Positions 4,698-51,591 of a DNA stretch of 64,000 nt are shown in pieces. This DNA is from an archaeon (GTDB taxonomy: Archaea > Micrarchaeota > Micrarchaeia > Anstonellales > Bilamarchaeaceae): contig JAGVNI010000016.1 in NCBI GenBank assembly GCA_020053355.1, positions 31,694 through 95,693 on the forward strand. The letters run 5' to 3'. The translations under genes were made by a program, and so were the position numbers. The notes beneath the pieces were generated by a model that was given only the letters and a program-made list of their open reading frames with translations, searched no databases and was not told the DNA's origin. How positions within the stretch are numbered: the first letter of the stretch is position 1; each line of letters opens with the position of its first letter.

Positions 4698-4778
4698 TAT
4701 GGATATGGGATGCCAAATTCAGCGGATATTTGGCGGGGGAGCGATTCCCCCCCCAAAATGCCGGTTCAGGGGTGCCGG

Positions 4779-5990: not shown

Positions 5991-7217
5991 ATGAACCTCC
6001 TTGAAGCCGCACGGTATTCGTTCAACAACCTGGTCAGGCGCAGCCTGCGCAGCTGGCTGACCATACTCGGCATGGTCATCGGCGTGATGGCCATCGTGGT
6101 CATCCTGTCAATCAGCGAAGGGTTCAACCGGGAAATAAACACCCAGATGTCAGCCTTCGGCGCCGACATGATGTTCGTTTACCCGATTGCCGACCTGGAA
6201 TCCGCGTTCTCCGGCGGTAGCTCCGGGCTGCTCACGACCAGCGGAAAGCTGAGGCAGGCCGATGTGGACGATATCCAGAACATCCCGGGAGTGAAAGACG
6301 TGGCCCGGTCCTTATACGGCCGGGCGAGCATCTCATTCAAGGATAAGAACATCACGGGTTTCATCGTCGGGACCGACAAGGAGATGTTCGACATGTATCC
6401 CACCTACATTGAGGTGGAATCCGGCCGGGTGTTCAAGAACGGGGAGCGCAACGTCGCGTTCTTCGGGGCGGACGCCGCGAACAACCTTTTCGGGAAAGAC
6501 AAGGTCCAGGTCGGGAGCATCGTGCAGATGAACGGCAAGAATTTCCGCGTCGTAGGGGTCCAGAAGCGCATCGGGACTTCCCTATCCGCTTCGGACGATT
6601 CCCAGATATACGTCACATTCGACGACGCCCGGGACATGTTCAGGGGCCAGTACCTCGAAGACGAAGTCGGGTTCATCATGGTCCAGGTCGACTCGGGCTT
6701 CAAGCCTGACGAGATAAAAGACGCCATCGAGCGGAAAATCTCCGCGAACCACCGCCTAAGAGTCGCAGACAAGGACTTCTCAGTCATCACGTCCGACCAG
6801 ATATCCGAGATTGTCGGCACGATACTCCTCAGCATCCAGCTCGTTTTGGGGGCCGTCACCCTGATTGCGTCCGTGGTCGGGGCAATCGGCATCGCGAACA
6901 CGATGTTCATGAACGTCCTCGAGCGCATCCGGGAAATCGGAATTCTCAAGTCAGTCGGCGCGACAAAAAACGACATCCTGATGCTGTTCCTTATAGAAAG
7001 CGCGATTATCGGGTTCGCCGGGGGGTTAATCGGCCTCGTGCTGGGATACGCCCTCCTCCAGGTCCTCGTGGACCTATTCAGCGTCCCCGCATTCCTTCGC
7101 CTGCGCATAATAGCATTCGTATTCATCTTCTCCATAGGGACCGGAGTCCTTGCCGGAATTATCCCCTCCTGGAGGGCCGCCAAAATGGACCCTGTCGAAG
7201 CGCTGAGCTACGATTAA
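5991..7217 (+). CDS. ABC transporter permease (MacB/FtsX family), second subunit
   Basis: LRSWLTILG, GIANTMFMNVLERIREIG, DPVEALSYD. Confidence 0.93.
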   Translation: MNLLEAARYSFNNLVRRSLRSWLTILGMVIGVMAIVVILSISEGFNREINTQMSAFGADMMFVYPIADLESAFSGGSSGLLTTSGKLRQADVDDIQNIPGVKDVARSLYGRASISFKDKNITGFIVGTDKEMFDMYPTYIEVESGRVFKNGERNVAFFGADAANNLFGKDKVQVGSIVQMNGKNFRVVGVQKRIGTSLSASDDSQIYVTFDDARDMFRGQYLEDEVGFIMVQVDSGFKPDEIKDAIERKISANHRLRVADKDFSVITSDQISEIVGTILLSIQLVLGAVTLIASVVGAIGIANTMFMNVLERIREIGILKSVGATKNDILMLFLIESAIIGFAGGLIGLVLGYALLQVLVDLFSVPAFLRLRIIAFVFIFSIGTGVLAGIIPSWRAAKMDPVEALSYD

Positions 7218-7309
7218 TCCCGCGCACCATCCACTTTGCGCCATCGTTGCTGACCAAAACCCAGTTACCTATATATTCCTTGCTATTTCAAGTGAGAAAT
7301 CAGATTCCT

Positions 7310-9409
7310 ATGGAGCTTATTGTTGCAGAAAAACCAAGGGTAGCAGAAAAAATCGCCATGGCCCTCGGCGAGAAGGTGGAAAAGAAAGGCCACAACGGCG
7401 TGTCATATTACGAGACGACCCGGGACGGGAATGAAATCACCATCGCGCCAGCAGTCGGCCATGTCTATACGCTCGTGGAGCGCGAGCGAACGCGCACATA
7501 CCCGGTTTTCGACATCGAGTGGGTGCCGTCGTATACCGCTTCGAAGGGCGCGGCTTATACGAAGGGGTACGTGGAGCTGCTCCAGAAACTCGGGAAGAAG
7601 GCGGATGTCTTCGTCTCAGCGTGCGACTACGACATCGAAGGCAGCACGATAGCGTACAACGTCTTCCGTTTCGCCACAACAATCCGCGAAGGCAAGAGGA
7701 TGAAGTTCTCCGCCCTTACCAAGGAGGACCTGTCATCCGCCTACGATGAGCGGACCGATTTCGACTACAACAACGCATTCGCCGGGGAGACCCGCCATAT
7801 AATAGACTGGTTCTACGGCATCAACCTCAGCCGCGCCCTGATGGGCGCGCTGCACAAGGCCCATGGCTACCGCGTGCTTTCGATAGGCCGCGTCCAGGGG
7901 CCCGGCCTCATGCTGCTCTCTGATTTGGAAAAAGACATACGCGCATTCGTGCCCACCCCGTACTGGGAGCTGGGCGTCATGATAAAGGACGTGGAGTTCC
8001 TGCACAAGTCCGGCCGGTTCCTGGAGGAGGCCAAGGCGGAGCTGGCACTCGAGAGGACATCAGAGGATGGCGCTGTAAGCCTCGTGGACGTGAAGGAGCA
8101 GGAGGTCCCCGCGCAGCCGAATTTCGATTTGACCAGCCTGCAGGTCGAGGCCTTCCGCCTTTTCGGATATCCCCCTTCGCGCACCCTGGAAATCGCGCAG
8201 AACCTCTACGAAGCATCGCTGATAACATACCCGAGGACATCGTCCCAGCAGCTTCCCGCCTCAATCAAGCTCCCGCCCATCGTCTCGGCCCTGGGGGCCA
8301 ACCCGGACTACGCGCAGCTTGCGAAGAAAATCGCGGAGAACAGGTGGTACAAGCCGGTGCAGGGCAAGAAGGAGGACCCGGCCCACCCGGCAATCCACCC
8401 GACGGGGCAGAAAGGCGCGATAGGCGGGCCTGAAAAGAACATGTACGACCTGATTGTGCGCCGCTTCCTTGCGGCCTTCGCCCCGCCGGCAAAACGCCAG
8501 CGCAACAGGATCGAAGTGGACTGCGGCGGCGAAATATACGCTGCGTCCGGCAGCCGGCTGATAGAGAAGGGCTGGACGGAATTCTACGGAAAATACTACA
8601 CGCCGGAGGACGTGGAGCTCCCGCCCTTCAAAATGGGCGAGTCCGTTTCCGCCAAGTCCAAGAAGAAGACGAAGAAAGAGACCAAGCCGCCGAAAAGATA
8701 CACCCAGGCATCGATTGTCTCCGAATTGGAAAAGCGCCACCTGGGGACGAAAGCGACGCGCTCGGTGATTGTAGACACGCTCCTCAAAAGGGGCTACGCG
8801 TCCGGAGCCAAGTCCATCGAAGTAAGCGATTTCGGCATCAAGGTCACGGATGTGCTCAGAAAGTACGCCCCGGAGATTCTCGACGAGAACCTGACCCGGA
8901 AGATGGAAGACGAGATGGAGCTGATTGCCGACGGGAAACTGGACAAGGACTCCGTCATCAAGGAAAGCAGGGAAATCCTCACGCAAATCCTGGATAAATG
9001 GAAAGCGAACGAGGGGAAAATAGGCGCGGAGCTGGCCGACGCGTTGAAACTCACCCAGCAGCGCGAGAACCTCCTCGGCCCGTGCGACAAGTGCGGCGCG
9101 CAGCTGCGAATAATCCGGATGCGAGACGGCCGCCAGTTCATCGGCTGCTCCGGGTATCCGAACTGCCGGAACGCATATCCCCTTCCGCCGAAATCCGCCG
9201 TCTCTCCAGGCGCCAAGCCCTGTCCGGCCTGCGGCAAGCCCACTATCAATGTTAAAAAGGCTAGGACCAGATATAGCATGTGCATAGACCCGAATTGCCC
9301 GTCTAAAGCGAGCTGGAAGAAGCGCGGCGCCAAGGAAGAGGAACCGAAAGCCGAAAAAACCACCGAGGCGCCCAGCGCCAAAGGTGAAACCGATGAGAAA
9401 GATAGCTGA
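7310..9409 (+). CDS. topA: DNA topoisomerase IA (archaeal TopA)
   Basis: TOPRIM AEKP...DYDIEG, SIGRVQ, catalytic ITYPRT, LGTKATR, C-terminal Cys4 zinc ribbons. Confidence 0.95.
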   Translation: MELIVAEKPRVAEKIAMALGEKVEKKGHNGVSYYETTRDGNEITIAPAVGHVYTLVERERTRTYPVFDIEWVPSYTASKGAAYTKGYVELLQKLGKKADVFVSACDYDIEGSTIAYNVFRFATTIREGKRMKFSALTKEDLSSAYDERTDFDYNNAFAGETRHIIDWFYGINLSRALMGALHKAHGYRVLSIGRVQGPGLMLLSDLEKDIRAFVPTPYWELGVMIKDVEFLHKSGRFLEEAKAELALERTSEDGAVSLVDVKEQEVPAQPNFDLTSLQVEAFRLFGYPPSRTLEIAQNLYEASLITYPRTSSQQLPASIKLPPIVSALGANPDYAQLAKKIAENRWYKPVQGKKEDPAHPAIHPTGQKGAIGGPEKNMYDLIVRRFLAAFAPPAKRQRNRIEVDCGGEIYAASGSRLIEKGWTEFYGKYYTPEDVELPPFKMGESVSAKSKKKTKKETKPPKRYTQASIVSELEKRHLGTKATRSVIVDTLLKRGYASGAKSIEVSDFGIKVTDVLRKYAPEILDENLTRKMEDEMELIADGKLDKDSVIKESREILTQILDKWKANEGKIGAELADALKLTQQRENLLGPCDKCGAQLRIIRMRDGRQFIGCSGYPNCRNAYPLPPKSAVSPGAKPCPACGKPTINVKKARTRYSMCIDPNCPSKASWKKRGAKEEEPKAEKTTEAPSAKGETDEKDS

Positions 9410-12352: not shown

Positions 12353-13624
12353 ATGTCGCTTCTCATAAAGGATGCCACCATAGTCACGCAGGATGCCGCA
12401 CGGCGAATCGTCCGGGGCAGCATTCTCATAGACGGCGGCGCAATCATGCAGGTCGGCGAGGTCCGGGGGGGCGCAGATGCCGTGATTGAGGCCCATGGCA
12501 AAATCGCGATGCCCGGCCTGGTGAACATGCACACTCACGTCGGGATGACCGTCCTCCGGGGTTACGGGGAAGGCCTTCCGCTGCAACGATGGCTTGATGA
12601 AAAAATATGGCCTGCCGAGGCGCGGCAGACGGCGGAGGATGCGGCAGCCGGCGCGCGCCTGGCGTTCTGCGAGATGATCCGGGGCGGCACGACAACGTTT
12701 GCCGAGATGTGCATCCACCCTGTTGACGGCGTTTTCAAGGCCGCAGCAGACGCCGGGATGCGGGGGCGCATCGGGCGCGGCCTCATGGATTTCAACCATC
12801 CGGAATGGATTCCTAAAATCATGAAGGAGGTCGAGGCATCGCTCCAGCTTGGCGGCGGGGGCCTCCTGCCGTTTGTCGGCGCGCACGCCCCGTACACCTG
12901 CTCCGAAGAGCTGCTCATGAAAGCAAAGGAGCTCGCAAGGCGCAATGACCTCCCGTTCCAGATGCATGTCGCGGAGACCAGGAAGGAGGTCTTCGATGTG
13001 CTTAAGGCGCGCGGCAAATACCCATTTGAGTATCTTGACTCCATCGGCCTCATGGACCGCTCATCGATATTCGCGCACGGCAACTGGCTGACCAAAAGGG
13101 AGATGGGGATTGCAGGCCGCGCAGGAATCACCGTTGCCGCATGCCCCATCAGCGGCCTGAAGCTGGCGGTCGGGGGCATATCCCAGCTGGCCGAACTCGA
13201 CGCGCTCGGAGCGAACGTCACGCTCGGGACCGACGGGGCCGCAAGCAACAATTCCCTCGACATGTTCCAGACCATGAAGATGGCGGCCCTCCTCCAAAGC
13301 CACCATTACTGGAAGGCGGACGCGCTCCCTGCTCAGAAGGCGCTGGACTTCTCCACCATTAACGGCGCAAAGGCCCTGGGTTTCAACACCGGCTCGATTG
13401 AGCCGGGGAAGGGAGCGGATATCATCATCCTCGAGCGGGGGCCGAACCTGCGCCCTGAGCATGATTTGATTGCGAACCTTGTGTACAGCGCGGGCCCCCA
13501 GAACGTCTCGGACGCGGTCATCGGGGGGAAAATCGTCATGCAGGGCCGGCGCATCCTGACCATCGACGAGGCCGCAGCGATGAAAGAGGCAGAAGACGCC
13601 GCAAAAAGCATCGCCGGAAGTTAA
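12353..13624 (+). CDS. Amidohydrolase, MTA/SAH/5'-deoxyadenosine deaminase-like
   Basis: PGLVNMHTH, HAPYTCS, MHVAET, LGTDGAASNN. Confidence 0.88.
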   Translation: MSLLIKDATIVTQDAARRIVRGSILIDGGAIMQVGEVRGGADAVIEAHGKIAMPGLVNMHTHVGMTVLRGYGEGLPLQRWLDEKIWPAEARQTAEDAAAGARLAFCEMIRGGTTTFAEMCIHPVDGVFKAAADAGMRGRIGRGLMDFNHPEWIPKIMKEVEASLQLGGGGLLPFVGAHAPYTCSEELLMKAKELARRNDLPFQMHVAETRKEVFDVLKARGKYPFEYLDSIGLMDRSSIFAHGNWLTKREMGIAGRAGITVAACPISGLKLAVGGISQLAELDALGANVTLGTDGAASNNSLDMFQTMKMAALLQSHHYWKADALPAQKALDFSTINGAKALGFNTGSIEPGKGADIIILERGPNLRPEHDLIANLVYSAGPQNVSDAVIGGKIVMQGRRILTIDEAAAMKEAEDAAKSIAGS

Positions 13625-13722
13625 TCCTGCCCATTCCTAACCTCCCGCCATAACAGCGCACCCCGGAGCCGGCTTCCGTTTAACGTCTGTGCTCCGACGT
13701 GCCATCTCCGTGGGGCAGACCG

Positions 13723-13734
13723 TAAAATATATAA
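13723..13734 (+). promoter_or_regulatory. Candidate TATA box upstream of tfb
   Basis: taaaatatataa in the intergenic region ~70 nt upstream of the tfb ATG. Confidence 0.45.
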
Positions 13735-13800
13735 ATGCCCATGTTCATAAAAATTCTGCAAATTCTTAAAAACCTATGCTTGATTTGTGGAGGCTTTTTA

Positions 13801-14715
13801 ATGGGAGCAACAGCGACAAAATGTCCAGAATGCAAGAGCAAGCGCGTCGTGCGCGATTATGAGAGGGGGGAGCTTCTATGCTCGAGCTGCGGCCTAATCA
13901 TCGCGGAGAACATCCACGATATGGGCCCGGAGTGGCGCGCTTTCGACGCGGAGCAGAAGGAGAAGAAGGCCCGCGGCGGCGCTCCGATAAAATACATGAG
14001 GCCTAATAAGGGCCTTGTCACCGAGATAGACCAGTATAACCGGGATATCCGCGGGGGCAAGATAAGCCCGAAGAAGCAGGCCCAGCTGTACCGCATGAGG
14101 AAGTGGCACAAGAGGGTTTCCATCGCAACGTCCATGGAGAGGAACCTCGTCATCGCCCTTGCCGAATTGGACCGCGTGGCATCGTCCCTCGGGCTTCCGG
14201 AAAACATCAAGGAGAGCGCAGCGCTGCTTTACCGCAGGGCTGTCAAGGAAGAGCTCATCCGCGGAAGGCTGATTGAGAGCGTGGTCGCGGCCGTGATATA
14301 CGCAATCTGCAGGCTCCAAGGCATCCCGAGGACCCTGGATGAGATTTCGCGCGCATCAGGGATAGAGAAGAAGGAAATCGGGCGCGCATACCGCTTCCTG
14401 AAGACCGAACTGAAGGTCGACGTCCCGCTGACAGACCCGGCGCAGTACGTGCCGAAGTTCGCAACCGCCCTCAAACTGGGCGGCGAAGTGCAGGAGGAGG
14501 CCGTGAAGCTCATCCGCAAGGCGCTCCGAAAGGGCCTGATTTCAGGCCGGGGCCCGACCGGCGTCGCCGCAGCCGCGCTTTATATCGCGAGTGCCATGCA
14601 CGGCGAGAAGAAGACGCAGAAGGAGGTCGCGGATGTAGCCGGCGTGACGGAAGTCACGATAAGGAACCGCTACCGCGAGCTGAAAAAGGAGCTGGGCCTT
14701 AAAGTCAACCTTTAA
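13801..14715 (+). CDS. tfb: Transcription initiation factor IIB (TFB)
   Basis: CPEC...GELLCSSCG zinc ribbon, GPEWRAF B-reader, two cyclin repeats, VTEVTIRNRY. Confidence 0.98.
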   Translation: MGATATKCPECKSKRVVRDYERGELLCSSCGLIIAENIHDMGPEWRAFDAEQKEKKARGGAPIKYMRPNKGLVTEIDQYNRDIRGGKISPKKQAQLYRMRKWHKRVSIATSMERNLVIALAELDRVASSLGLPENIKESAALLYRRAVKEELIRGRLIESVVAAVIYAICRLQGIPRTLDEISRASGIEKKEIGRAYRFLKTELKVDVPLTDPAQYVPKFATALKLGGEVQEEAVKLIRKALRKGLISGRGPTGVAAAALYIASAMHGEKKTQKEVADVAGVTEVTIRNRYRELKKELGLKVNL

Positions 14716-14751
14716 TATCCCTTTTTATTCTTTTTTAACCACTTTTTTATC

Positions 14752-15207
14752 ATGTCTCTAATACAATCCAAAAAGGACCGGTATTCTGCCGGAATTGATT
14801 TTTTCCAAGAACTCCAATTAATCGCCAATAGCTATCCCATGGGGGTTCCTGCCAGGGTGCTTGCATCCTGCTTCAAATCAGCAGAATTGCGGATGGAGGA
14901 CGCCGACGGCCCTTCGCATCCCGGTTCCGCCTACGAGCGGAAAAAACTGATATGCGCATTCACTGCGGACTCGCAAATCCCGCCCGATACCGTCTCCGAA
15001 GCCGCATTGCTTGCCTGGGGAAGGCAATGCTGCCTCAAGCTTGGCCTCAAGGGATTCGTTACCCCCAAGCCGCTCGCAGAAAGCATCCGTCCCGATGATG
15101 CCGGCCAGATGTTCGTTTCGCAAATTAAGCGTGCCATGCAAGCTGGCGATGCCCATCCTGAAGGCGGAATCGAAATCAACTCGCCAGGCAGCGAGGCCCG
15201 GAACTGA
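14752..15207 (+). CDS. Hypothetical protein
   Basis: 151-aa ORF following a T-rich tract; no recognised motif. Confidence 0.45.
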   Translation: MSLIQSKKDRYSAGIDFFQELQLIANSYPMGVPARVLASCFKSAELRMEDADGPSHPGSAYERKKLICAFTADSQIPPDTVSEAALLAWGRQCCLKLGLKGFVTPKPLAESIRPDDAGQMFVSQIKRAMQAGDAHPEGGIEINSPGSEARN

Positions 15208-15218
15208 GCCTGAATTTT

Positions 15219-15282
15219 TGATCAGATGTGATGTTTTCCTCATCGGACTTGCGTCCTCGGCCTGTCAAACTATCATCATTTC
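15219..15282 (-). ncRNA. C/D-box guide sRNA (minus strand)
   Basis: ATGATGA (C, 15279-15273) - guide tagtttgacagg - CCGA (D') - ggac GCAA gtcc hairpin - GATGA (C') - guide ggaaaacatcacat - CTGA (D, 15225-15222). Confidence 0.85.
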
Positions 15283-15303
15283 AGCCTGAATTAGGCGGGG
15301 AGG

Positions 15304-15313
15304 AGATTAAAAG
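15304..15313. promoter_or_regulatory. Candidate shared bidirectional TATA element for the two sRNAs
   Basis: attaaaa (15306-15312) lies ~25 nt from both C boxes and reads ttttaat on the minus strand. Confidence 0.5.
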
Positions 15314-15332
15314 GATTGGCGCAGATTGCCAT

Positions 15333-15397
15333 CCAATGATGAGAATGCAATACCTTTGAGCCCGCAAGGGCGATGAAATAGATCTTGAGTCCTGATT
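15333..15397 (+). ncRNA. C/D-box guide sRNA (plus strand)
   Basis: ATGATGA (C, 15336-15342) - guide gaatgcaatacct - TTGA (D') - gccc GCAA gggc hairpin - GATGA (C') - guide aatagatcttgagtc - CTGA (D, 15392-15395). Confidence 0.87.
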
Positions 15398-15461
15398 TAT
15401 ATGGCTCAGCGGAACCGCGAGCAGGCACTGCCTGCGGCCGGGTTCTGAAAAAGAAATCCCC

Positions 15462-15555
15462 GCCCTCCGGTATTGGACGGCTCTGCTATAATCCGCGTCT
15501 CCAAGATGCGGGTTGCGGGTGGGGGGAATTAGGCAGGCCTTATCCGCCGGAGGGC
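15462..15555. other. Long GC-rich hairpin element of unknown function
   Basis: Closing stem gccctccgg/ccggagggc with apical stem atccgcgtct...gatgcgggt. Confidence 0.5.
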
Positions 15556-15557
15556 AT

Positions 15558-15581
15558 TAAATAAAAAGAAAAAAAAGAAAA
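15558..15581 (-). terminator. Oligo-T terminator of the DUF5667 gene
   Basis: A-rich run on the plus strand (oligo-T on minus) immediately after the stop at 15588. Confidence 0.6.
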
Positions 15582-15587
15582 GACGGC

Positions 15588-16493
15588 TCAATCCTCTGTC
15601 TCGTTCTCCTCTGTTTCGTTTTCGCCGTCGTTCTCTTCTTCATCCTGTCCCTGGCCGCCTTTGCCATTTCCTTTTCCGGTGACGTTCGTTCCGGCATCTT
15701 CAGGTTTGCCGGTCTCCTTGGTCTTGTTCACCTGACCCTGGCCGTGGCCGGTTGCGGTTTCGTTGTCAGTTTCGCTCCCGTCCCCATCGTCGGTCTCATT
15801 TTCAGTTTCATTTCCGGCCATTGTCTGGTTCCCTTTCTGCTCCTTCTCCTGCTGCTTGGTCTCTATCTTCTCGACGTGCCTTTCGTAGTTGCTTATCGAG
15901 TTGTTCAGGGCGCGGAGCAGGCCGTCCTTCGCTGCTTCCGGGGCTTTCTCATAAACCCTCTGCAGCACGATTATGCTGTTGCGGGTGTCGTTCTGCACCT
16001 GCTCGACCTCAGTCTCGTTCGCGCTGCCGTCCGCTACCGCGGATTCGAGGTCTGTTTGGGCATCTTCGAGCTCATCGGTCTGTTCGTCGGCGAGCTTTTC
16101 CACTTCGGTAAGGGTGGAGTTGGCCCCAGCCTCATCCCCTTCAGCTGCAAGCCTCTGCGCCTTTCCTGAGAGGACGTGGGCTTCCATCGCCCTCATCAGC
16201 CCGTATTTGGCGTGCTTCTTCGCGCTCTCGCTCTTGTCGAACGTGAAGAATTTGTCCATATTCTCGAAGAACCTCTTGAACCCGTAATTCCAGTCGCCGG
16301 GCAATGCGCCGACTTCGCTTTCATTCACCGCGACATCGGTCCCATCCGTTGAATCGTCTAGGCTGGCGGCCGATGCGTTCCCGCCAGCTTCCACCGCAGC
16401 TGTCCCGTTCCCGTCGGCTTCCGCAGATTCTAGCGCGAAAGCGGGCATTGACAGAAGCCCGATGGCAAGCAACAATATTGCAAATTTGTTCAT
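15588..16493 (-). CDS. Secreted DUF5667-domain protein with acidic low-complexity tail
   Basis: Signal peptide; LPGDWNYGFKRFFE resembles the DUF5667 LP..xYxxKRxxE motif; many NET/NES sequons. Confidence 0.7.
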   Translation of the reverse strand: MNKFAILLLAIGLLSMPAFALESAEADGNGTAAVEAGGNASAASLDDSTDGTDVAVNESEVGALPGDWNYGFKRFFENMDKFFTFDKSESAKKHAKYGLMRAMEAHVLSGKAQRLAAEGDEAGANSTLTEVEKLADEQTDELEDAQTDLESAVADGSANETEVEQVQNDTRNSIIVLQRVYEKAPEAAKDGLLRALNNSISNYERHVEKIETKQQEKEQKGNQTMAGNETENETDDGDGSETDNETATGHGQGQVNKTKETGKPEDAGTNVTGKGNGKGGQGQDEEENDGENETEENETED

Positions 16494-42293: not shown

Positions 42294-43019
<726 letters not shown>

Positions 43020-43023
43020 TGGA

Positions 43024-44625
43024 ATGAAAACCTGGAACCTACTGTTGATGGCATTATTGTTAAGCGTGACGCTGGCATACAGCGCGGACTCCACCTCCCC
43101 GGCGCTGCAGGTGACCGGTTACAACGTGGTCCCGGAAACCGTATATCCCGGGACGAACGGCCAGCTGGAACTCACAATCGAGAATACCGGCACCGAGACC
43201 GCCAAGGGTTCGGCCGTGTACTACACCTACGGGACCGACCAGCAATGGAGCGTCTACCTCGGCGATATCGGGCAGAACTCCCAGGCAATCACCACGATTC
43301 CGTTCGTGGTTCCGGATAAGGTGAGCAGCGGCATACTCGTGCTGAATGTGGACCTGTACTATCTTGACGAAGACGAAACCGGGTCCAAGCATACGATGGC
43401 ATCCATTCCCATATCTATCGGCCAGCATGAGGTCCTGGAAGTGCGGACGCTTTCCTTAAGCAGCAGTACCATCGGCAAGGGGGAGAAGCTGACCGTTGCG
43501 CTTGAGCTGGAAAACACTGGTGGCGTCATGAAGAATGTCATAATCTCTGCGGCGGACAATTCCTCGTTCAGCCTGGCTGGGACAACCCAGAAGCGGGTCG
43601 GCGATATCGAAGCGAACGCAAGCAAGAATGTCTCCATAGACATCCTCTCCTCATCGAGCGCCGCAGAAGGGAAATACTCGATACCGCTCGTCCTGACCTA
43701 CCAGGACGCTTTGCAGAACACGATAACCCAGACCGTCTACGTCGGTCCTGTGACGGTGTCAGATTCGTCCTCGCAAATGCGCATCCTGTGCACCCCCATC
43801 TCCAATAGCGAGATCGGGTCCACCCTTGTCTACAACCTGACCTTCGAAAACCTGGGGAGCAGCGTTCAATCGGTAGTCATCGTAGTTGAGGGCACGGATG
43901 TATTCACCCCGATAGGGATAAACACGTTCTACGTCGATGATATCCTCCCCGGCGAAAGCAGGACAGAATTGATAACGCTCGGCATAGATGCCGGTTCTTC
44001 ATCCGGTTATTATGTCCTGCCCATCACGATGCAGACGAACGGCGATGAGCAGGAATACGATATCGGCATCGTCGTCCAGGCCACCCCGGAGATTCTCATG
44101 ACCTCCGAAATAGAGAGCACCACAGACGGGACGCAGGTGAGCGTCAAAATCTCGAACACGGGAAATACCGCGGTCCGTTCCCTCTATATCCGGGCGGACT
44201 CGAACGATTATTACCGGGTCAGTGGTTCGGGCGAGAAGTTCATCGGCACCCTCAGCGTCGACGACTACGCGAGCTACTCGGTGACCGTCAACCAGATTGG
44301 GCAGGCCCCGGCGGGCGCGGCCGCAGGAATCCCGCTGACCGTCGTCTTCAAGGATAATGACAATGTCGAGCATACCGTGAAGAAGACCATCGTGATAAGC
44401 GGGGCAACGGATGCCGCCGCATACGGAAACGCTTCATTCTCCTCATCATCCCAGAACCGCACTTTCAGCGGCCGCCCTGGCGGCGTGATGGGCGGCGGTT
44501 CAACCGAGAACATCCCTGTATATGCAGGCATCGGCCTTGTGATTCTTGGCGGGCTGTATCTTGGATACCGGAAATTTAGAGGAAAGAAAAAAGTCCCGGA
44601 GGGCTCGGATGAAACTCGCAGATAG
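43024..44625 (+). CDS. COG1361-like S-layer/Ig-repeat surface protein
   Basis: Signal peptide; ENTG/YLGDI/DDILPGE modules; FIGTLSVDDY; C-terminal TM followed by basic tail. Confidence 0.8.
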   Translation: MKTWNLLLMALLLSVTLAYSADSTSPALQVTGYNVVPETVYPGTNGQLELTIENTGTETAKGSAVYYTYGTDQQWSVYLGDIGQNSQAITTIPFVVPDKVSSGILVLNVDLYYLDEDETGSKHTMASIPISIGQHEVLEVRTLSLSSSTIGKGEKLTVALELENTGGVMKNVIISAADNSSFSLAGTTQKRVGDIEANASKNVSIDILSSSSAAEGKYSIPLVLTYQDALQNTITQTVYVGPVTVSDSSSQMRILCTPISNSEIGSTLVYNLTFENLGSSVQSVVIVVEGTDVFTPIGINTFYVDDILPGESRTELITLGIDAGSSSGYYVLPITMQTNGDEQEYDIGIVVQATPEILMTSEIESTTDGTQVSVKISNTGNTAVRSLYIRADSNDYYRVSGSGEKFIGTLSVDDYASYSVTVNQIGQAPAGAAAGIPLTVVFKDNDNVEHTVKKTIVISGATDAAAYGNASFSSSSQNRTFSGRPGGVMGGGSTENIPVYAGIGLVILGGLYLGYRKFRGKKKVPEGSDETRR

Positions 44626-45871
44626 TGCCGAAATCGCCCTAACGAACATAATGCACCAGAAGCTGCGCAGCTGGCTAACCATCCTGGGCATAGTGGTGGG
44701 CGTAGCGTCCATCATTACCCTCATCTCCATAAGCATGGGGATGCAGGAGAACGTCACCAAGCAGACCAGCGTGCTCGGGGCCAACCAGATAACCATCACA
44801 GCAGGGTCGCAGCGGGCCAGCCGGATGATGGGCATGGGGCTTGCCGGAGGTGGAGGGGGGCCACCGCCTGGCGCGGTATTCGAGGAGGATGATTCGGAAA
44901 CCGCAGCTGTTACATTCAAGGAAGCGGACGAATTGCGTTCGCTTTCAGGTGTTTCCGTCATCGATGCCAGGCTTTCGGAGCGCAAAGACATCGTGTATAA
45001 GACCAAGAACACGACCCTTAGCGTCATCGGCACCGACCCCGACGCGTTCCCGGAAACGCTGAGCGTGGAGCTTGAGAACGGCCGCCTTCTTGGCGTCAGC
45101 GACAAATACTCCGCAGTCATCGGCTACAACGTCGCCCACGCAGTATTCGACGGCGAAGACGACGATGAAGTGGACCTTCTCAACAACCAGATAGAGATTG
45201 ATGGCGTCGCCTTCAAGGTCGTCGGAATCCTGAACGAATCGGGCGGCATGGCGGGGAGCGACAACAACATCTACGTGCCAATCGAGACGGCCCAGGACCT
45301 CTTTGACGAGGATGAGGATGTCAGCGAGCTTATTGTGGTAGTGAAAGACGGCTATAACGTCGATACAATCGCTTCCGACCTTGAAACGGAACTCAAGTCG
45401 CTCCACGACCTTTCCGATGACGAGGATGCGGACTTCTCAGTCGTGACCGCGACATCGATGCAATCTGCGGTCTCGTCTATTACAGACACGCTGACTCTTT
45501 TCCTAGGCGGAATCGCCTCGATATCGCTTATTGTCGGCGGCATCGGCGTGCTCAATACGATGTTCATGAGCGTGCTAGAGCAGACGAAGACGATTGGCGT
45601 CTTCAAGGCGCTGGGGGCCAAGGACAGCGACATCATCCGCCTCTTCCTGATAGAAGCCGCGACGCTCGGGTTCATAGGCGGCCTGGCGGGCGTCGGCTTG
45701 AGCTTCTTCGGGTCGATTGTCCTCTCGATGTTCAGCCTTCCCTCGGCAATCACGGTGGAACTGGTGGCCATGGGACTGTTCTTCTCGGTCATTGTAGGCA
45801 TCGTAGCCGGGATAGTGCCCGCGCGGAACGCCGCGCAGATATCCCCGATAGAGGCCCTGAGGTACGAATGA
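44609..45871 (+). CDS. ABC transporter permease (MacB/FtsX family)
   Basis: KLRSWLTILGIVVG, GVLNTMFMSVLEQ, SPIEALRYE. Confidence 0.93.
   Translation: MKLADSAEIALTNIMHQKLRSWLTILGIVVGVASIITLISISMGMQENVTKQTSVLGANQITITAGSQRASRMMGMGLAGGGGGPPPGAVFEEDDSETAAVTFKEADELRSLSGVSVIDARLSERKDIVYKTKNTTLSVIGTDPDAFPETLSVELENGRLLGVSDKYSAVIGYNVAHAVFDGEDDDEVDLLNNQIEIDGVAFKVVGILNESGGMAGSDNNIYVPIETAQDLFDEDEDVSELIVVVKDGYNVDTIASDLETELKSLHDLSDDEDADFSVVTATSMQSAVSSITDTLTLFLGGIASISLIVGGIGVLNTMFMSVLEQTKTIGVFKALGAKDSDIIRLFLIEAATLGFIGGLAGVGLSFFGSIVLSMFSLPSAITVELVAMGLFFSVIVGIVAGIVPARNAAQISPIEALRYE
45701..45871 (+). repeat. Left copy of the diverged ~170-bp direct repeat (permease 3' end)
   Basis: Collinear with 51666-51836; differences almost all synonymous. 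Confidence 0.9.
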
Positions 45872-45951: not shown

Positions 45952-46764
45952 TCACAATTGCGTTGCCCAGCCGCCATCCACTACGATAGCCTGGCCGGTG
46001 ATGTAGCCGGCGCCATCCCCTGCAAGGAACACCGCCGCGTCGGCGATATCCTGTGGGAGCCCGGCGCGCTTTATGGGCATTCCCTTAATGAACGCGCTGA
46101 AGGCGGCCCTGTTCCTGATGAACGCCTCGGTCATCCTGGACTTTGTCACGCCCGGGCATATGGCGTTCACGGTTATCCCGTGCTTCCCCAGGTCCACCGC
46201 GGCGGACTGGGTCAGGCCCAAAACCCCGGCCTTTGACGCGCAATAGGCGGCTCGCCCTCCGAATCCGCGCAGGCCGGCGACCGAACTTATGTTGATGATG
46301 CGGCCCCAGTTCCGCTCCTTCATCTTCAGGGCCGCATACTTCGTCCCGAAAAAAACGCCGTCCAGGTTCACGGCAAGCACCGTGCGCCAGAGCTCCGTTC
46401 CGGTTGCGAGCACCGAGCTCATCTCGTCGATTCCGGCATTGTTCACCATGATGTCCACTGAGCCGTAACGCGCCTCCGCCTTATCCAGCAGGGATTTCAC
46501 CTGCCCCTCGTCGCTGACGTCGCAGGGGATGGATGCGGCTTCGCCTCCTGCCTGTATTATCCCTTCCGCGACCTTGAGGCACGCATCCGCGTCAGTAGAC
46601 GAGACCACGACCTTGGCTCCGGTGCCGGCCAGGGCCGAAGCTATCGCAGCGCCGATGCCCCTGCTCGAACCAGTTACTACGGCCACCCTTCCTTCCGGCC
46701 CGCGCCTTTGCGCCGCGTTGGCCGTTTTCCTTCCGAGATTGAAGATGTCCAGCATATTCTTCAC
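45952..46764 (-). CDS. SDR-family oxidoreductase (FabG-like)
   Basis: TGSSRGIG, NNAG, YCASK, VDGG. Confidence 0.93.
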   Translation of the reverse strand: MKNMLDIFNLGRKTANAAQRRGPEGRVAVVTGSSRGIGAAIASALAGTGAKVVVSSTDADACLKVAEGIIQAGGEAASIPCDVSDEGQVKSLLDKAEARYGSVDIMVNNAGIDEMSSVLATGTELWRTVLAVNLDGVFFGTKYAALKMKERNWGRIINISSVAGLRGFGGRAAYCASKAGVLGLTQSAAVDLGKHGITVNAICPGVTKSRMTEAFIRNRAAFSAFIKGMPIKRAGLPQDIADAAVFLAGDGAGYITGQAIVVDGGWATQL

Positions 46765-46787
46765 CCGCGATTGCCCCTGGATAATTA

Positions 46788-47699
46788 TTATTGAGATTTC
46801 TTGGCCTTCTTCATTTCATACGCGTATCCGTCATGCGTTGCCAGGATGGCCACCCTGCACAGCAGCTCATAGGCAATGGCGTCATAAATCGGGATTTTCC
46901 TGTCTTTTACGTACTTGTCCCCGATTCCCTTTCTGATGACCAGGCTCCGGATGAGGTTCAGGCGGCTGAACGGGGAGTTCCTGCCCTGCTTCAGGCCGTA
47001 TATCCTGGCAATCGTCGCGCTTCCCCTGCCGGAAAGCCAGCACTTATGGTAGATCGAGCGGACATCGGTCGGGTCCCTGTGGCGGACCGTTCCGCCTTCG
47101 AGGTACCTCAGGTCGTACCTCTTCCGAATTATCTTCTGCGACAGGTGGATGTCCTCAACACCCACGATTTCCTCGTTGAAGATGCCCACATCGAGAAGCG
47201 CGGAGCGCAGGTAAAGCACGTTCATGGTGGGGATATGCACGGTCCTTCCCTCCCGCCCCATGTTGTCCCATACCCTGCGGCTGTTCCAGAAGCGGCTGAT
47301 GACGTTTTCGGGATTCTGGGACAGGATGGGACCGCCGACGCCCGCGCATCTGCCGTCGTCCCGGAAGCCGGCGAGCAGCGTCCGGAGCCAGCCTGGCTCT
47401 GCGATGCAGTCATCGTCCGTGAAAGCGATGAACCGCGCGTCCGAGCTCCGAACCCCCAGATTCCTCGCGGCGCTTGCGCCGGGTTTCCCCTGCTCCAGGA
47501 ACCTCAGGACTCCCGCATCGGCCTTGGCTATTAGGAATTCCTTTGTGCCGTCAGCGGAGCCGTTGTCCACGACAATGATCTCGAACTTCGTTTTCGGCAG
47601 GTCCTGCCTTTCGAGCGCCCCGATGCATTTCTTCAGGTCTTCGAGCCGGTTGAGCGTCGGTATGACGATACTGACCTCCATGCGATGGATAATGCCCAT
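46788..47699 (-). CDS. Glycosyltransferase family 2
   Basis: SIVIPTLNR, VVDNGSADGT, ARNLG, FTDDDC, VED. Confidence 0.93.
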   Translation of the reverse strand: MGIIHRMEVSIVIPTLNRLEDLKKCIGALERQDLPKTKFEIIVVDNGSADGTKEFLIAKADAGVLRFLEQGKPGASAARNLGVRSSDARFIAFTDDDCIAEPGWLRTLLAGFRDDGRCAGVGGPILSQNPENVISRFWNSRRVWDNMGREGRTVHIPTMNVLYLRSALLDVGIFNEEIVGVEDIHLSQKIIRKRYDLRYLEGGTVRHRDPTDVRSIYHKCWLSGRGSATIARIYGLKQGRNSPFSRLNLIRSLVIRKGIGDKYVKDRKIPIYDAIAYELLCRVAILATHDGYAYEMKKAKKSQ

Positions 47700-47794
47700 T
47701 TGGATTTAAATCCTCAGGCATCCGTCCGGCTCTCCCCGCCCCATCCGCCCCACCCCACCATTTCCTATTAATCCTTTGCCACCAACATACTCCC

Positions 47795-48061
47795 ATGGCC
47801 TATTCGAAAAACCCGAACCTCATCGACAAGAAGATCGAGGCTGGCCTGCTGCTTTTCGACACAGATTCGAGCCGGATGATGGAGCTGAACTCCACCGCAG
47901 CTCTTCTCTGGCAGGAATCCCCGGCCAACTTCGGCAAGGAAGACCTGAAAAAAATAATCGAAGCCCGTTGCACCGGTGCAAAGAACGTGGAGCAGGATGT
48001 CGCGGATTTCATCGGGGCCGCGCTGAAGCTGAAGCTGGTGAGCGATGATGGAAAAAATTAA
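47795..48061 (+). CDS. PqqD-family / RiPP recognition element (RRE) protein
   Basis: 88 aa; LLLFD....MMELNSTAALLWQ...VEQDVADFI..ALKLKLV pattern. Confidence 0.88.
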   Translation: MAYSKNPNLIDKKIEAGLLLFDTDSSRMMELNSTAALLWQESPANFGKEDLKKIIEARCTGAKNVEQDVADFIGAALKLKLVSDDGKN

Positions 48062-48137
48062 GTACGTGAAGCCGGAAATCAAGGAAATCTGGGACGAGGA
48101 CGTCGGCCCGCTCGGCGTTTACCTGCTTGAAATGTGA
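48048..48137 (+). CDS. Putative RiPP precursor peptide (29 aa)
   Basis: Manual ORF MEKIKYVKPEIKEIWDEDVGPLGVYLLEM; YxxPxI leader motif; GGTGA RBS; overlaps the RRE stop and ends just before the next ATG (48139). Confidence 0.75.
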   Translation: MEKIKYVKPEIKEIWDEDVGPLGVYLLEM

Positions 48138-48138
48138 A

Positions 48139-49131
48139 ATGCTCGAATTGATGCCAATGGCGGGGAACGAAGTTGCTGGGCGCGGTCAATTATCCGCAGA
48201 AATCGCCTCGCTGATGAAAACCAATCCTGACCCGGAATTCGTCAGGGCCAACCTCAGCGAGACCTCCAAGAGACGGTTCGCCGCCCTGGTGCAGGAGAGG
48301 CGCATCGCCCAAACGCTCAGGGTTCTCGGCTTCCTGAACCGCCGCGGAGTGGATTTCGCGGTCCTCAAGGGCGTCACCCTGGCACGTTTCGACCGCGCGC
48401 GAGATTTTGCCGACCTGGACATACTCGTCGACCGCAAGGACGTGGAAGCGGTCGGAGGCATGCTGGAGAAGGAATTCGGCTATTTTTATTCCAGGCCCCA
48501 GGAGCTGGAATCCCTAGCCCGGGGGGACGATGGCTGCCATGACGTCTCCCTCCACCACAGCCATATGCTCCCAATAGAACTCCACTTCAGGCTGTTCAAC
48601 TACACACCGGAGGGGGCTTTGCACCCGCTTTCGGGCAAGGTCATCCTCGAAATGGACGGGGTCCGCGTGCCGGCGCTCCGCAAGGAGCTGCAGCTGCTTG
48701 AGGTGCTCCTCCACAACGCCCTCCATCATATGTTCATCTGCGACCGGGAAAAATGGGCCAGGGACATAAACATCTTGGTGGACAACTACGACATCGACTG
48801 GGAAGGATTCGCGGACATTGCCCGCAGCATCAACCACTCCGAAGTGGCATACCTCACCGCCCGCCTGCTGCGCTCCTTCAGGAAGACGAAAGCCCGAATT
48901 CCGGGCAGCGCCATGCGGATGCTCGCTCCCCGCTCATTGGCATGCTACCTGAAAAAGCCGGTTTTCGCATGGGCGCTCTATTTCTGCAGGGACCGGCTTC
49001 TTCCGCCCCCGGACATACTTGAGGCCCGGTTCCATGTGCCACGGTCTTCGCCGCTCTTCGCCTTCTGCTATCTTGCGAACTGGCTCCGGCTGCCATTCAC
49101 CGCCGTATCGTTGGTCCTCAGGCGCCGATGA
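48139..49131 (+). CDS. Nucleotidyltransferase family protein (NTP_transf_5-like)
   Basis: VLKGVTL, RDFADLDILV, IELHFRL, LLHNALH, IDW. Confidence 0.88.
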   Translation: MLELMPMAGNEVAGRGQLSAEIASLMKTNPDPEFVRANLSETSKRRFAALVQERRIAQTLRVLGFLNRRGVDFAVLKGVTLARFDRARDFADLDILVDRKDVEAVGGMLEKEFGYFYSRPQELESLARGDDGCHDVSLHHSHMLPIELHFRLFNYTPEGALHPLSGKVILEMDGVRVPALRKELQLLEVLLHNALHHMFICDREKWARDINILVDNYDIDWEGFADIARSINHSEVAYLTARLLRSFRKTKARIPGSAMRMLAPRSLACYLKKPVFAWALYFCRDRLLPPPDILEARFHVPRSSPLFAFCYLANWLRLPFTAVSLVLRRR

Positions 49132-50053
49132 TTCCGTCAATGAAGCGCAGCAGGGCGCCCCTGACCTCGCCCTCGTCGCTTCCCTGGAAGAATTCGAAGC
49201 ATCTCGCGTTCTCAAGGATGGATGCGTATCTCTTGAATATGGCCGCAGAGCCGTCAGCGGCATCCCGCTCAAGGCCGGACCACAGGAACGGTATCTCCTT
49301 CTTGTAAATCCTGATGAGGCCTAAGAGAGCCTTGTTGTACTCGAGAGGCCGAATTTCGCTCGCGCTGCTGTTCCATATCCGGAGGAATATCACGCAGTCC
49401 GCTTTCCCATAGACCGATTTGTGCTCGGCATGCCTGCCGATATCGAAGAGGCCCGGGTCCACTCCGAAGCGCCTGGCGAAATCCTCGTCGACTCCCGTCT
49501 TAAGCGTGAACGGGAATATGCGCGTCCCGTCCGAGAGGACGGAGTCGTCGCTTATCGCGGTGGCGCCGCTCTGGATTAGCCTCATCAGCGATGAAGACTT
49601 GCCGCACTTGCTGTCCCCGCAGAACACTATCGTCCTGCCCTTGTAGCTCGCGGCCGACGCGTGGATGAACGCGAGGCCCTTGCCCTCGGCGGATTTTATC
49701 ACAAGCCATTTCAGCAGCCATCTCATCAGTTCGTGCAGCCCGGTGCAGTCGGAGCGGTAATCCACGGACAGCTCTTTCTCCCCAACAGCCATCCGGATGA
49801 GGAACCTGCCGTCCTTGTCCGCAATGTATAATCGCCCCTCATGGAGATAGACGCATGCATTGTTGAGAACATTGGTCCTGACTGCCTTTTCCGGGATGTT
49901 CCACCCATCACTCCTGCTGAACCTGGCAAGGCAGTCGTGCGGACCCGCTCCGGCCCGGTAATATTTCAATTCGTCATCCATCTTCCTGAAGAAATCGTCG
50001 CCGCTGTGCTCGATCTTCAGGGCAACGCTTGCGAGATTATAGTGCGATTCCAT
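49118..50053 (-). CDS. HPr-kinase-like P-loop kinase
   Basis: IHASAA, Walker A GDSKCGKSS, ISDD. Confidence 0.82.
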   Translation of the reverse strand: MESHYNLASVALKIEHSGDDFFRKMDDELKYYRAGAGPHDCLARFSRSDGWNIPEKAVRTNVLNNACVYLHEGRLYIADKDGRFLIRMAVGEKELSVDYRSDCTGLHELMRWLLKWLVIKSAEGKGLAFIHASAASYKGRTIVFCGDSKCGKSSSLMRLIQSGATAISDDSVLSDGTRIFPFTLKTGVDEDFARRFGVDPGLFDIGRHAEHKSVYGKADCVIFLRIWNSSASEIRPLEYNKALLGLIRIYKKEIPFLWSGLERDAADGSAAIFKRYASILENARCFEFFQGSDEGEVRGALLRFIDGIIGA

Positions 50054-50054
50054 A

Positions 50055-50483
50055 TCATTGCGCCTTCGTGTATGGGTAGTAACGTGAAGCCATCGTCAGC
50101 AGGAGGAAATATTTCTTCTTCCTGATATCGATGAGCCTTGAGTAGATTATGAATTGGGGCAGAAACAGGGCGAGGAGGAGCTCTGCCGCCGGCTTCCGCG
50201 GGACCATTCTCCCCTTGCCTACAATGACGCCGAGCAGCTTGTCTTTCCGGAACGGGAATCCTATCACCGGGCAGTTGTCCCCCCTCGTGAAGTAATACCC
50301 TGCGCATTTGTACATCAGCCTGTGGGCTATCCTGATGCCGTAGCGGTTCTCGAAAAGCACAACATCCCCGATTTCCGGTTCCGCCCCGCTATCGAGATAG
50401 AGCCGCTCCTTCGGGTCGATGGAGGGGTGCATGTCGTTCCCCCGGATAACTTTAAGCGCCTGCAAATTCCCCGAAGACATCAT
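50055..50483 (-). CDS. S24/S26 peptidase-like protein
   Basis: IRGNDMHPSI, GDVVLF, IAHRL, FTRGDN, LLGVIV. Confidence 0.78.
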   Translation of the reverse strand: MMSSGNLQALKVIRGNDMHPSIDPKERLYLDSGAEPEIGDVVLFENRYGIRIAHRLMYKCAGYYFTRGDNCPVIGFPFRKDKLLGVIVGKGRMVPRKPAAELLLALFLPQFIIYSRLIDIRKKKYFLLLTMASRYYPYTKAQ

Positions 50484-51591
50484 TCACCGCCCTGCGATAG
50501 TCGTCCGCGCCGTATCTTTTAATCGCTTCCACCGCGCCGTCAGCCTTCCTGCGCCTGAACCCCTCGTCCGTAAGCATGCGGACCAGGCCCTCGGCATAGT
50601 CTTCCGGGTCCTTGCAGCGCGCGCAATACCCGAACGAATCAATCTCCCCCCTCTCGAACCCGGCGTACTCGTTCGTCACGACCGGCAGGGCGTGGCCCAG
50701 ACATTCGCATAGCGCTATGGGGCATTCGTCGAAGCAGAATGGCATGAACGCGCAGTCCGCCATCCTCATGTATCCATAAAGCCGCTCCTTGGGCAGGAAG
50801 CCTGCGACGATGATATTCGCCTTCCCCCTCGCTTCGTCCAGAAGGCTCCGCATATAGTCCTGCTCGTAATTGTTCATCCTGCCGCAGATGACCAGGACCG
50901 CCTCGGGCATGGACTTCTTCAGGATTTTCATGGCCTCGATGGCGTACCCCGTCCCCTTCATCACGCGCAGCTCGGCCGGCATCAGGACAATCCTCATCCT
51001 CCTGCCCCCGGATTCCGCCCGCTTGGTTCCCGCATCATCGCGCAGGTCCGGTATCGGCCTTCGAAGGTACGTCACCTTGCCTGGTTCCACGCCGTGCTCC
51101 TCGATGATGTGCTGCCGGATCTTCACCGAATGCGTGATTATCATTTCCGCCTTCTCGAAATTCTCCCCCTCGCGCTCGCCGACGAAAGCGTAGTAGTCGA
51201 GCAGTTTCTGGAAATGGGGCGTTTGCGGATACTCGCCATCTACAAGCTCGCGGACCTTCCTGTACGGCACTGACGATGTGTGGTATATGTGCCTCTGCTT
51301 CAGGAAAAGGCCCATGCTGTTGAATGCCAGTATGGCATCCGGCCGCGCATCCCCGACCTTCCCGGCGAAGTCTTTCGACACTGCAATCGTGCTGCGGTAG
51401 CGGTCCATCAGGCCGTCTCCGCCATCCCCCATCGCTTCGCTTCCGCCTTCGAGCCGGACATCCCCGCCGCTCGGCGCGTATACGATGCGCTCATGGCCCT
51501 CCAGGGCGTTGTATACCTGCCTGAATACAGTCGGGAAGCCGTTGGGCGTCAACGTATCGAGGTTGTCCGGCACGCCGATGGCTATCTTCAC
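50452..51591 (-). CDS. Glycosyltransferase family 4
   Basis: GT-B C-terminal ADCAFMPFCFDECPIALCECLGHALPVV; KG motif. Confidence 0.85.
   Translation of the reverse strand: MKIAIGVPDNLDTLTPNGFPTVFRQVYNALEGHERIVYAPSGGDVRLEGGSEAMGDGGDGLMDRYRSTIAVSKDFAGKVGDARPDAILAFNSMGLFLKQRHIYHTSSVPYRKVRELVDGEYPQTPHFQKLLDYYAFVGEREGENFEKAEMIITHSVKIRQHIIEEHGVEPGKVTYLRRPIPDLRDDAGTKRAESGGRRMRIVLMPAELRVMKGTGYAIEAMKILKKSMPEAVLVICGRMNNYEQDYMRSLLDEARGKANIIVAGFLPKERLYGYMRMADCAFMPFCFDECPIALCECLGHALPVVTNEYAGFERGEIDSFGYCARCKDPEDYAEGLVRMLTDEGFRRRKADGAVEAIKRYGADDYRRAVNDVFGEFAGA

Follow-up and report, generated by a model that had tools for sequence, protein, structure and literature searches.

A seven-gene cassette around a conserved 29-residue peptide in Micrarchaeota, read as a cyclase-less, RRE-guided peptide-decoration system

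We analysed a stretch of 64,000 nucleotides of a micrarchaeal genome (the window, G000:C5:31694-95693; genome G000 comprises 1.59 Mb in 20 contigs and is 90% complete) and observed in it a compact cassette of seven genes, which encode a peptide of 29 residues, a discrete RiPP recognition element (RRE; RiPP, peptide made by ribosomes and modified post-translationally), a nucleotidyltransferase-fold protein, an HprK/PEPCK-fold kinase, an S24/S26 signal-peptidase-like protein (S26-like protein) and two glycosyltransferases (GT), of the GT2 and GT4 families. Our reading, to which we give a probability of about 0.6, is that the cassette is an RRE-guided system for decorating the peptide in the absence of a cyclase, a divergent relative of the tailoring found in clusters for linear polyphosphorylated peptides (LPP) and in those of the paeninodin type.

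The peptide is the best-conserved part of the cassette. In nine other loci it is 69-93% identical, as compared to 30-60% for the enzymes. We regard the small open reading frame (ORF) as a genuine protein-coding gene under strong constraint. All pairs of ten peptide genes gave 453 synonymous vs. 257 nonsynonymous codon differences, and a Shine-Dalgarno-like motif, CTGGTGA, lies 7-8 nt upstream of the peptide ATG in 9 of the 10 loci of the subfamily to which the window belongs (subfamily 1). The gene is present in single copy in G000. A first-pass annotation of the window, made by a model from the sequence, had proposed checking whether a short ORF with a YxxP motif is kept after the RRE gene; it is, wherever a locus extends far enough for this to be seen.

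Searched with a profile of the peptide, a set of 1.84 billion representative proteins yielded 21 peptide clusters at E ≤ 1e-3, all of 29-53 aa, and their representatives, taken together with the peptides of the loci, make up a family of 32 distinct sequences. The YxxP motif is present in all 32. The Tyr of this motif and the Glu of a second motif, LLE, are 22 residues apart in 31 members and 23 in the remaining one (P0094), which carries a single-residue insertion; in every member only one or two residues follow LLE before the peptide ends. Two glutamates are invariant (32/32), namely E17, two residues past Trp and allowing for the insertion in P0094, and E28, which is the Glu of LLE. Most of the variation falls within an N-terminal extension rich in Lys. 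G20 is replaced in four of the 32 members, by Ser in two, Ala in one and Glu in one, and a fifth, in which the register is uncertain, has Asp. The invariant Glu close to the C-terminus is our main suspect for the chemistry of the system.

The same set of genes was observed in other genomes. When 151 genomes of the same order were searched with the nucleotidyltransferase, it was found in four, G000 included. Two of these belong to the same genus and contain all seven gene types in a rearranged order, with a peptide that is 86-90% identical as compared to 40-64% for the enzymes, and in the fourth the contig is too short to judge the cassette. A scan with a kinase profile, which covered one genome per species, gave five loci, three of them labelled Micrarchaeota or Micrarchaeia, one from an archaeon, and one from a bacterium of the candidate phyla radiation (CPR), labelled Candidatus Staskawiczbacteria. 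The peptide was present in all four informative loci of this kinase-first scan, the fifth (L019) ending inside the nucleotidyltransferase. All seven genes are found, in rearranged order, in the five loci of sufficient length, that is, the window, L015, L016, L020 and L022. Since the same gene set, small ORF included, recurs in other genomes in a different order, the cassette is more than a chance assembly. In L022, which is the CPR locus, identity with the window is 69% for the peptide, 38% for the kinase, 38% for the RRE and 30% for the nucleotidyltransferase.

A scan of metagenome contigs with the peptide profile added nine more loci: five short contigs, where the RRE is followed at once by the peptide, and four loci that form a second subfamily (subfamily 2). 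On the three long contigs of the latter (L029-L031) the gene set consists of RRE, kinase, a second GT4, S26-like protein, peptide, GT4 and NTP_transf_5 protein; the enzymes are 25-36% identical to those of the window and the peptide 67-68%. The hosts are Micrarchaeota and one CPR bacterium, besides metagenome contigs that are unassigned, and the occurrence is very patchy: a full-length kinase turned up in 3 of the 401 genomes sampled from the phylum, all of one genus, and in 1 of 401 genomes of the class of the CPR bacterium. The sequencing runs listed as containing the sequence were all of DNA, mostly with small shares of it, and none was of RNA. Weaker kinase-profile matches in five further Micrarchaeota genomes did not hold as cassette members. 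The regions around the five strongest of six such matches (L041-L045) had no RRE, S26-like or peptide match in hidden Markov model searches at E ≤ 0.1; the matching proteins are distant HprK-like P-loop proteins of 317-387 aa (in G384:C29, G370:C11, G201:C20, G278:C5 and G165:C3).

We take the conserved unit to be 46788-51591, with seven genes, because the oxidoreductase of the short-chain dehydrogenase/reductase (SDR) type that adjoins it, the upstream MacB-type ABC genes and the downstream ORFs are not kept beside the cassette elsewhere. Within the unit the genes are tightly packed (Table 1). The start of the peptide gene overlaps the stop of the RRE gene, its stop abuts the start of the nucleotidyltransferase gene, the forward and the reverse units converge at 49118-49131, and the GT2 and RRE genes diverge across a gap of 95 bp. 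Every gene named in the first-pass annotation was present at its coordinates, and the described geometry (tight coupling of RRE, peptide and nucleotidyltransferase, convergence, divergent GT2) proved correct, as did the statement that the cassette has no cyclase, B2 protease, radical SAM (S-adenosylmethionine) or YcaO gene. Its inclusion of the SDR gene in the cluster was not borne out: no SDR homologue adjoins the cassette in L015, L016, L020, L022 and L029-L031, and L017 has one SDR, which is 32% identical.

Table 1. Genes of the cassette and the adjoining SDR gene, with positions in the window.
Feature	Positions	Strand	Length	Basis and remarks
SDR oxidoreductase, neighbour outside the conserved cassette	45952-46764	-		adh_short_C2, 226 bits
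GT2 glycosyltransferase	46788-47699	-	303 aa	Pfam Glycos_transf_2, 87 bits
PqqD-type discrete RRE	47795-48061	+	88 aa	Pfam PqqD, 26.8 bits (cut-off 23.4)
Putative precursor/scaffold peptide, MEKIKYVKPEIKEIWDEDVGPLGVYLLEM	48048-48137	+	29 aa	Translation; alternative in-frame ATG at 48045
NTP_transf_5 (PF14907) nucleotidyltransferase-fold protein	48127-49131	+	334 aa from TTG 48127	Pfam, 84 bits
HprK/PEPCK-fold P-loop kinase	49118-50053	-	311 aa	Profile and AF2 (AlphaFold2) model
S24/S26 (archaeal/ER-type signal-peptidase-like; ER, endoplasmic reticulum) protein	50055-50483	-	142 aa	Profile and AF2 model
GT4 glycosyltransferase	50452-51591	-	379 aa	Pfam Glycos_transf_1, 74 bits

The first-pass annotation was aware of no characterised archaeal example of such an architecture. 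A precedent has existed since 2026, in the LPP clusters (lppA-K-B-S-D-N) of Bacillota (Popov et al., Nat Commun 2026, PMC13381572), and for this reason only the archaeal and CPR setting and the variant features described below are new. In the literature on archaea and DPANN we found nothing on this architecture beyond that paper; homologues from outside Bacillota may be given in its Supplementary Data 1-2 and Fig. S1. According to the text of the article, the LPP clusters, with what appear to be the same four enzyme types and no cyclase, yield linear, phosphorylated, leader-cleaved peptides; their core set includes the discrete RRE LppB, for a [Y/W]xxP leader, and an MsbA-like exporter; the precursors are of 35-200 aa, with the leader consensus YxxPxVLxHQxIxFETxxS and variable C-termini; the clusters often lie in capsule loci and are stated to be restricted to Bacillota (PMC13381572).

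The RRE call made at 47795-48061 in the first-pass annotation held in a profile comparison, where the PqqD score is above its cut-off and LppB and lasso B1 proteins are the best relatives in the PDB. A profile of 12 RRE sequences gave LppB (9x8z_B, E 5.3e-6) as the best match, ahead of the lasso B1 proteins TfuB1, TbiB1 and PbaB1. The invariant N32 and the nearly invariant D68 and F72 align with N33, D70 and F74 of LppB, which according to the reported crystal structure fix the kink at the leader Pro, the Tyr hydroxyl and the Pro ring (PMC13381572). We infer that the RRE binds the YxxP motif of the 29-residue peptide. A three-chain structure prediction of S26-like protein, RRE and peptide scored 0.73, with controls of 0.01 and 0.00 when a partner was replaced and 0.59 when the S26-like protein was replaced, and was not used as evidence. 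The profile of the peptide itself gave only chance matches to PDB chains (E ≥ 0.49), the LppA leader chain being absent.

Further likenesses to the LPP clusters are the YxxP motif in the leader, an HprK-like kinase, an archaeal-type signal-peptidase-like protein, the lack of a macrolactam cyclase, an association with glycosyltransferases and an extremely patchy distribution. The PF14907 protein with its invariant DxD motif may be the counterpart of the NTP transferase LppN, for which the text of the article gives no Pfam family. Unlike the LPP precursors, the peptide is of 29 aa and is conserved to its last residue; the core here includes GT4 together with either GT2 or another GT4; and the hosts lie outside Bacillota. 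The set of RRE (B1), HprK-like kinase and nucleotidyltransferase is shared as well with lasso peptide clusters of the paeninodin/pseudomycoidin type, which the first-pass annotation had drawn on and which a review describes in the same terms (PMC8498205). In these, as reported there, the nucleotidyltransferase adds a hexose onto the phosphate, and their characterised kinases act on a C-terminal Ser (PMC8498205). The present cassette differs from them in having no cyclase, no B2 protease and a peptide without a C-terminal Ser.

Since neither the kinase nor the S26-like protein gave a Pfam match as a single sequence (E ≤ 0.01; local copy), both were tested by profile and structural model. Among NCBIfam models, the kinase gave weak P-loop matches to HprK_rel_B, HprK and HprK_rel_A over residues 125-174, at 15-20 bits as compared to a cut-off of 200 for the HprK_rel families. 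A profile of 20 kinase sequences matched HprK/P (1jb1, E 3e-4) on the motif H..G.GDSxxGKS..DD, and the AF2 model (pLDDT 90.4) gave in Foldseek ATP-dependent PEPCK first (TMq 0.5-0.57) and then HprK/P. Homologues of the kinase carry precomputed assignments to PF07475 and PF27840, the latter, which is absent from the local Pfam copy, on most of them. The nucleotidyltransferase is the sole PF14907 gene in G000 and its start is likely the ATG at 48139. Numbered from there, residues G78, D92, D94, H149 and D209 are invariant in both subfamilies and in a proteobacterial homologue. Because the P-loop and DD motifs of the kinase are invariant or nearly so and the DxD motif of the nucleotidyltransferase is invariant, both enzymes are probably active.

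The profile of the S26-like protein (8 sequences) matched human SEC11A (7p2p_A, E 1.5e-4), with an Asp aligned on the Ser of SGSMEP and IAHR aligned on IVHR. Its AF2 model (pLDDT 91.2) gave structural matches to LexA, SpsB, lambda cI, UmuD', SEC11 and SipA, with E from 5e-3 to 0.1. Hydropathy indicates one hydrophobic C-terminal segment, residues 102-120. Both glycosyltransferases belong to the core of the cassette. The GT2 enzyme is 34-55% identical in L015, L016, L020 and L022, occurs also on the short contigs L023, L024 and L026, and is a core gene of subfamily 1, and the GT4 enzyme, for which identity is 45-64% within subfamily-1 loci as compared to 25-28% for those of subfamily 2, is a core gene of both.

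On these grounds we propose the following sequence of events. The discrete RRE would bind the YxxP motif of the peptide and, since the spacing from YxxP to LLE is fixed, the bound RRE may present the invariant C-terminal module [Y/F]-L-L-E-x to its partner enzymes. The HprK/PEPCK-fold kinase and the NTP_transf_5 enzyme would install a phosphate- or nucleotide-activated group, the GT4 and GT2 enzymes would add sugars, and the S24/S26-fold protein, which has Asp-His-Asp at the positions of the Ser-His-Asp triad, might bind or trim the peptide. As product we would expect either a short linear peptide bearing decorations or a glycan anchored on the peptide. Since the peptide sequence is conserved, a physiological or surface role appears more likely than that of a variable antibiotic. 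The linear phospho-, nucleotidyl- or glyco-peptide pathway suggested in the first-pass annotation is thus retained in part: a cyclase-less and RRE-guided pathway fits the conserved peptide, the RRE contacts and the LPP precedent, but a simple chemistry of a Ser kinase followed by sugar addition is unsupported, as no Ser or Thr is conserved.

Several observations weigh against the proposed pathway. No Ser or Thr is conserved among the 32 peptides, and one of them, P0111, has no hydroxyl residue at all after Trp. At the aromatic position before LLE, 19 residues past the leader Tyr, 27 members have Tyr and 5 have Phe. This position (Tyr25) had been considered as a universal phospho-acceptor, its distance from the leader Tyr being 19 residues as compared to 18 for Ser3 of LppA, and was rejected on account of the five members with Phe. 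The leader consensus of LPP beyond YxxP and the Ser acceptor are both absent here. LppK is reported to polyphosphorylate Ser3 of the core and to refuse the S3T and S3Y variants, and for LppN the article text reports that no activity was seen (PMC13381572). In addition, no transporter was found inside the cassette in any locus checked, so that the MsbA-like exporter of the LPP core set has no counterpart in it.

A further difficulty lies in the S26-like protein. In LppS, the archaeal-type signal-peptidase-like enzyme of the LPP clusters, S29, H68 and D93 are each essential and the S29A variant is inactive, as reported (PMC13381572). Here the fold, the His and the Asp of this triad are present (His54 and Asp69 are invariant), but Asp17 occupies the position of the nucleophile Ser. 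As compared to a type I signal peptidase (S26), the Ser of GxSMxP is replaced by Asp and the His of IAHR is kept, and the protein does not classify as one. The nucleophile position is Asp in all eight S26-like proteins from cassettes, and 33 of 38 strong family matches show GxDMxP (the other five do not show the motif); the canonical Ser, as GxSMxP, is found in 19 of 21 weak matches. The S26-like protein may therefore not be a protease, as it is without the Ser nucleophile that is essential in LppS. One relative of the S26-like clade, the intermediate match P0069, has Cys at this position (GECMEP), a hint of chemical activity persisting there. One S26-like protein of the Asp variant carries from its source the label Candidatus Methanomethylicus.

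An S26 fold with Asp in place of the nucleophile is found also in SipA of Streptococcus pyogenes (PDB 4n31), which acts in pilus assembly. Its NDMSP aligns with GxDMxP, and it is among the structural matches listed above. The sequence match, however, is weak (E 0.22) and the biological context is different. Moreover, SipA is reported to be without its general base too, whereas His54 and Asp69 are invariant in the proteins described here.

The alternative with the best claim, although we give it a distinctly lower chance than the decoration of a linear peptide, is that the peptide is a scaffold or carrier. In this case the RRE would grip YxxP and keep the Glu of LLE 22 residues away from it, and the kinase, the nucleotidyltransferase or both would turn E28 or the C-terminal carboxylate into an acyl phosphate or acyl adenylate. 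Once activated, the group might anchor a sugar-containing small molecule or glycan built by the GT4 and GT2 enzymes, to be released by the S26-like protein; or a freed N-terminus might attack it to give a head-to-side-chain lactam, G20 to E28 being nine residues, the size of a lasso ring, here without a cyclase of the Asn-synthetase type. We gave this alternative its weight because conservation covers the entire peptide and yet includes no hydroxyl acceptor. The module of 25 residues is conserved throughout, as compared to the variable C-termini of LPP, the invariance of E17 and E28 and the position of the latter one or two residues from the end are accounted for, two glycosyltransferases are core genes, and the likeness to PEPCK runs through the entire kinase model. 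On the other hand, we know of no acyl-phosphate-forming member of the HprK/PEPCK fold, the HprK-type kinases described as characterised in RiPP systems phosphorylate Ser hydroxyls, the replacements at G20 speak against it, and the whole proposal is drawn from conservation. The first-pass annotation had likewise suggested a peptide used as a carrier for sugar assembly; this may be so, and the very strong conservation along the entire peptide would, if it tells either way, speak for it.

It is unlikely that the locus is an ordinary cluster for a surface glycan or exopolysaccharide, in which the PqqD protein and the small ORF would be accessory or regulatory and the small ORF no substrate. Such a cluster would agree with the position of the CPR cassette among many glycosyltransferase-like paralogues and with the reported location of LPP and related clusters within capsule loci (PMC13381572). 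Furthermore, the pair of P-loop kinase and PF14907 protein resembles the HprK-related kinase A/B (TIGR04352, TIGR04355) pairs of proteobacterial polysaccharide loci. One of these loci, on plasmid NZ_CP081048.1 of Leisingera aquaemixtae (L047, 8212-10603), has an HprK_rel_A-like kinase beside a PF14907 gene; no peptide, PqqD-type RRE or S26-like gene was detected in it, and an ORF of 70 aa preceding the kinase matched neither PqqD nor another family. The kinase and nucleotidyltransferase pair travels also without a detectable RRE. However, no other element of the cassette is as well conserved as the peptide, whose linkage to the other genes is constant, the RRE keeps its leader-binding residues, the spacing from YxxP to LLE is fixed, and the flanking genes of the Micrarchaeota loci are unrelated to glycan synthesis and differ between loci.

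Still less probable is a lasso peptide of the usual kind, with genes for its cyclase and B2 protease at some other place, although the YxxP leader, the lasso-type RRE and the nine residues from G20 to E28 would suit it. The first-pass annotation had raised the possibility of a lasso cyclase or B2 protease elsewhere in the genome, and neither was found in G000, at 90% completeness. The B2 protease family Transglut_core3 (PF13471) has 0 matches in G000 and in each of three other genomes with the cassette (G418, G419 and G420). Two full-length Asn_synthase matches are present in G000, which score 845 as asparagine synthase B (cut-off 499) and 331 as asn_synth_AEB (cut-off 267); against the lasso cyclase model the same two proteins gave 140 and 116 bits, far under the cut-off of 525. 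We assign the Asn synthases of G000 to the AsnB type; a third match is a fragment-like ORF of 253 aa. In addition, the leader has no penultimate Thr and, since only one or two residues follow the Glu, the peptide has no tail to thread. YcaO gave 0 matches across G000.

A redox cofactor of mycofactocin type, made from a G-V-Y motif, is hardly credible: MftF is the best NCBIfam match of the GT2 enzyme, the peptide has G-V/I-Y and two subfamily-2 loci carry radical SAM and oxidoreductase genes, but the MftF score of 135.5 bits is well under the cut-off of 280 and about equal to that of EpsD (127.7 bits, cut-off 370), no radical SAM gene is present in any subfamily-1 locus or in L029, and GVY is not C-terminal and has its Tyr replaced by Phe in 5 of the 32 members. 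The two subfamily-2 loci are L030 and L031, two of the three long contigs, which add a radical SAM gene with a SPASM domain and a GFO/IDH/MocA oxidoreductase gene, both missing from L029; in L031 they occupy 4982-6043 and 6268-7287, with 54.7 bits for Radical_SAM and 32.4 bits for SPASM. A radical SAM enzyme acting in trans was also considered for G000 and rejected, as that of L031 has no tblastn match there at E ≤ 0.01. SPASM has a single match in G000, at G000:C7:68662-68808, within an open frame of 408 aa on another contig, which is unrelated by tblastn to the radical SAM gene of subfamily 2.

If the cassette decorates its peptide as we propose, it does so by breaking two rules of the characterised LPP system, since it has no Ser acceptor and no Ser nucleophile, and its solution would reveal further abilities of HprK-like kinases, PF14907 enzymes and S26-fold proteins. 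Were the peptide instead a scaffold, this would mean new chemistry for all three enzyme families (kinase, PF14907 and S26-fold) and a rare, dedicated secondary pathway common to DPANN archaea and CPR bacteria. Systems of LPP type were characterised as recently as 2026, and this variant is an unusually tractable one: there are seven small genes, a peptide of 29 residues that can be synthesised, and a target module of five residues whose spacing from the RRE-binding motif is fixed. The hosts, Micrarchaeota and a CPR bacterium, belong to genome-reduced and probably episymbiotic lineages. The presence of the cassette in both, with a peptide nearly unchanged across two domains, points to a horizontally transferred function that merits its place in a genome of 1-1.6 Mb, perhaps one at the cell surface.

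Directly upstream of the SDR gene in the window, at 42294-45871, lie genes for a MacB-type ABC (ATP-binding cassette) ATPase, a Ser/Thr-rich protein of 533 aa that has a signal-like segment at its N-terminus and an anchor at its C-terminus, and a permease of FtsX type. These genes were considered as the missing exporter and rejected, since they are unlinked to the cassette in every other locus. In the CPR genome the cassette of L022 is flanked, at 3860-7999 and 12922-15941, by four ORFs of 338-700 aa that share their first 50 or so residues; a fifth flanking ORF differs only at its start, and further glycosyltransferase-like genes adjoin. These surroundings look like a locally amplified family around the cassette.

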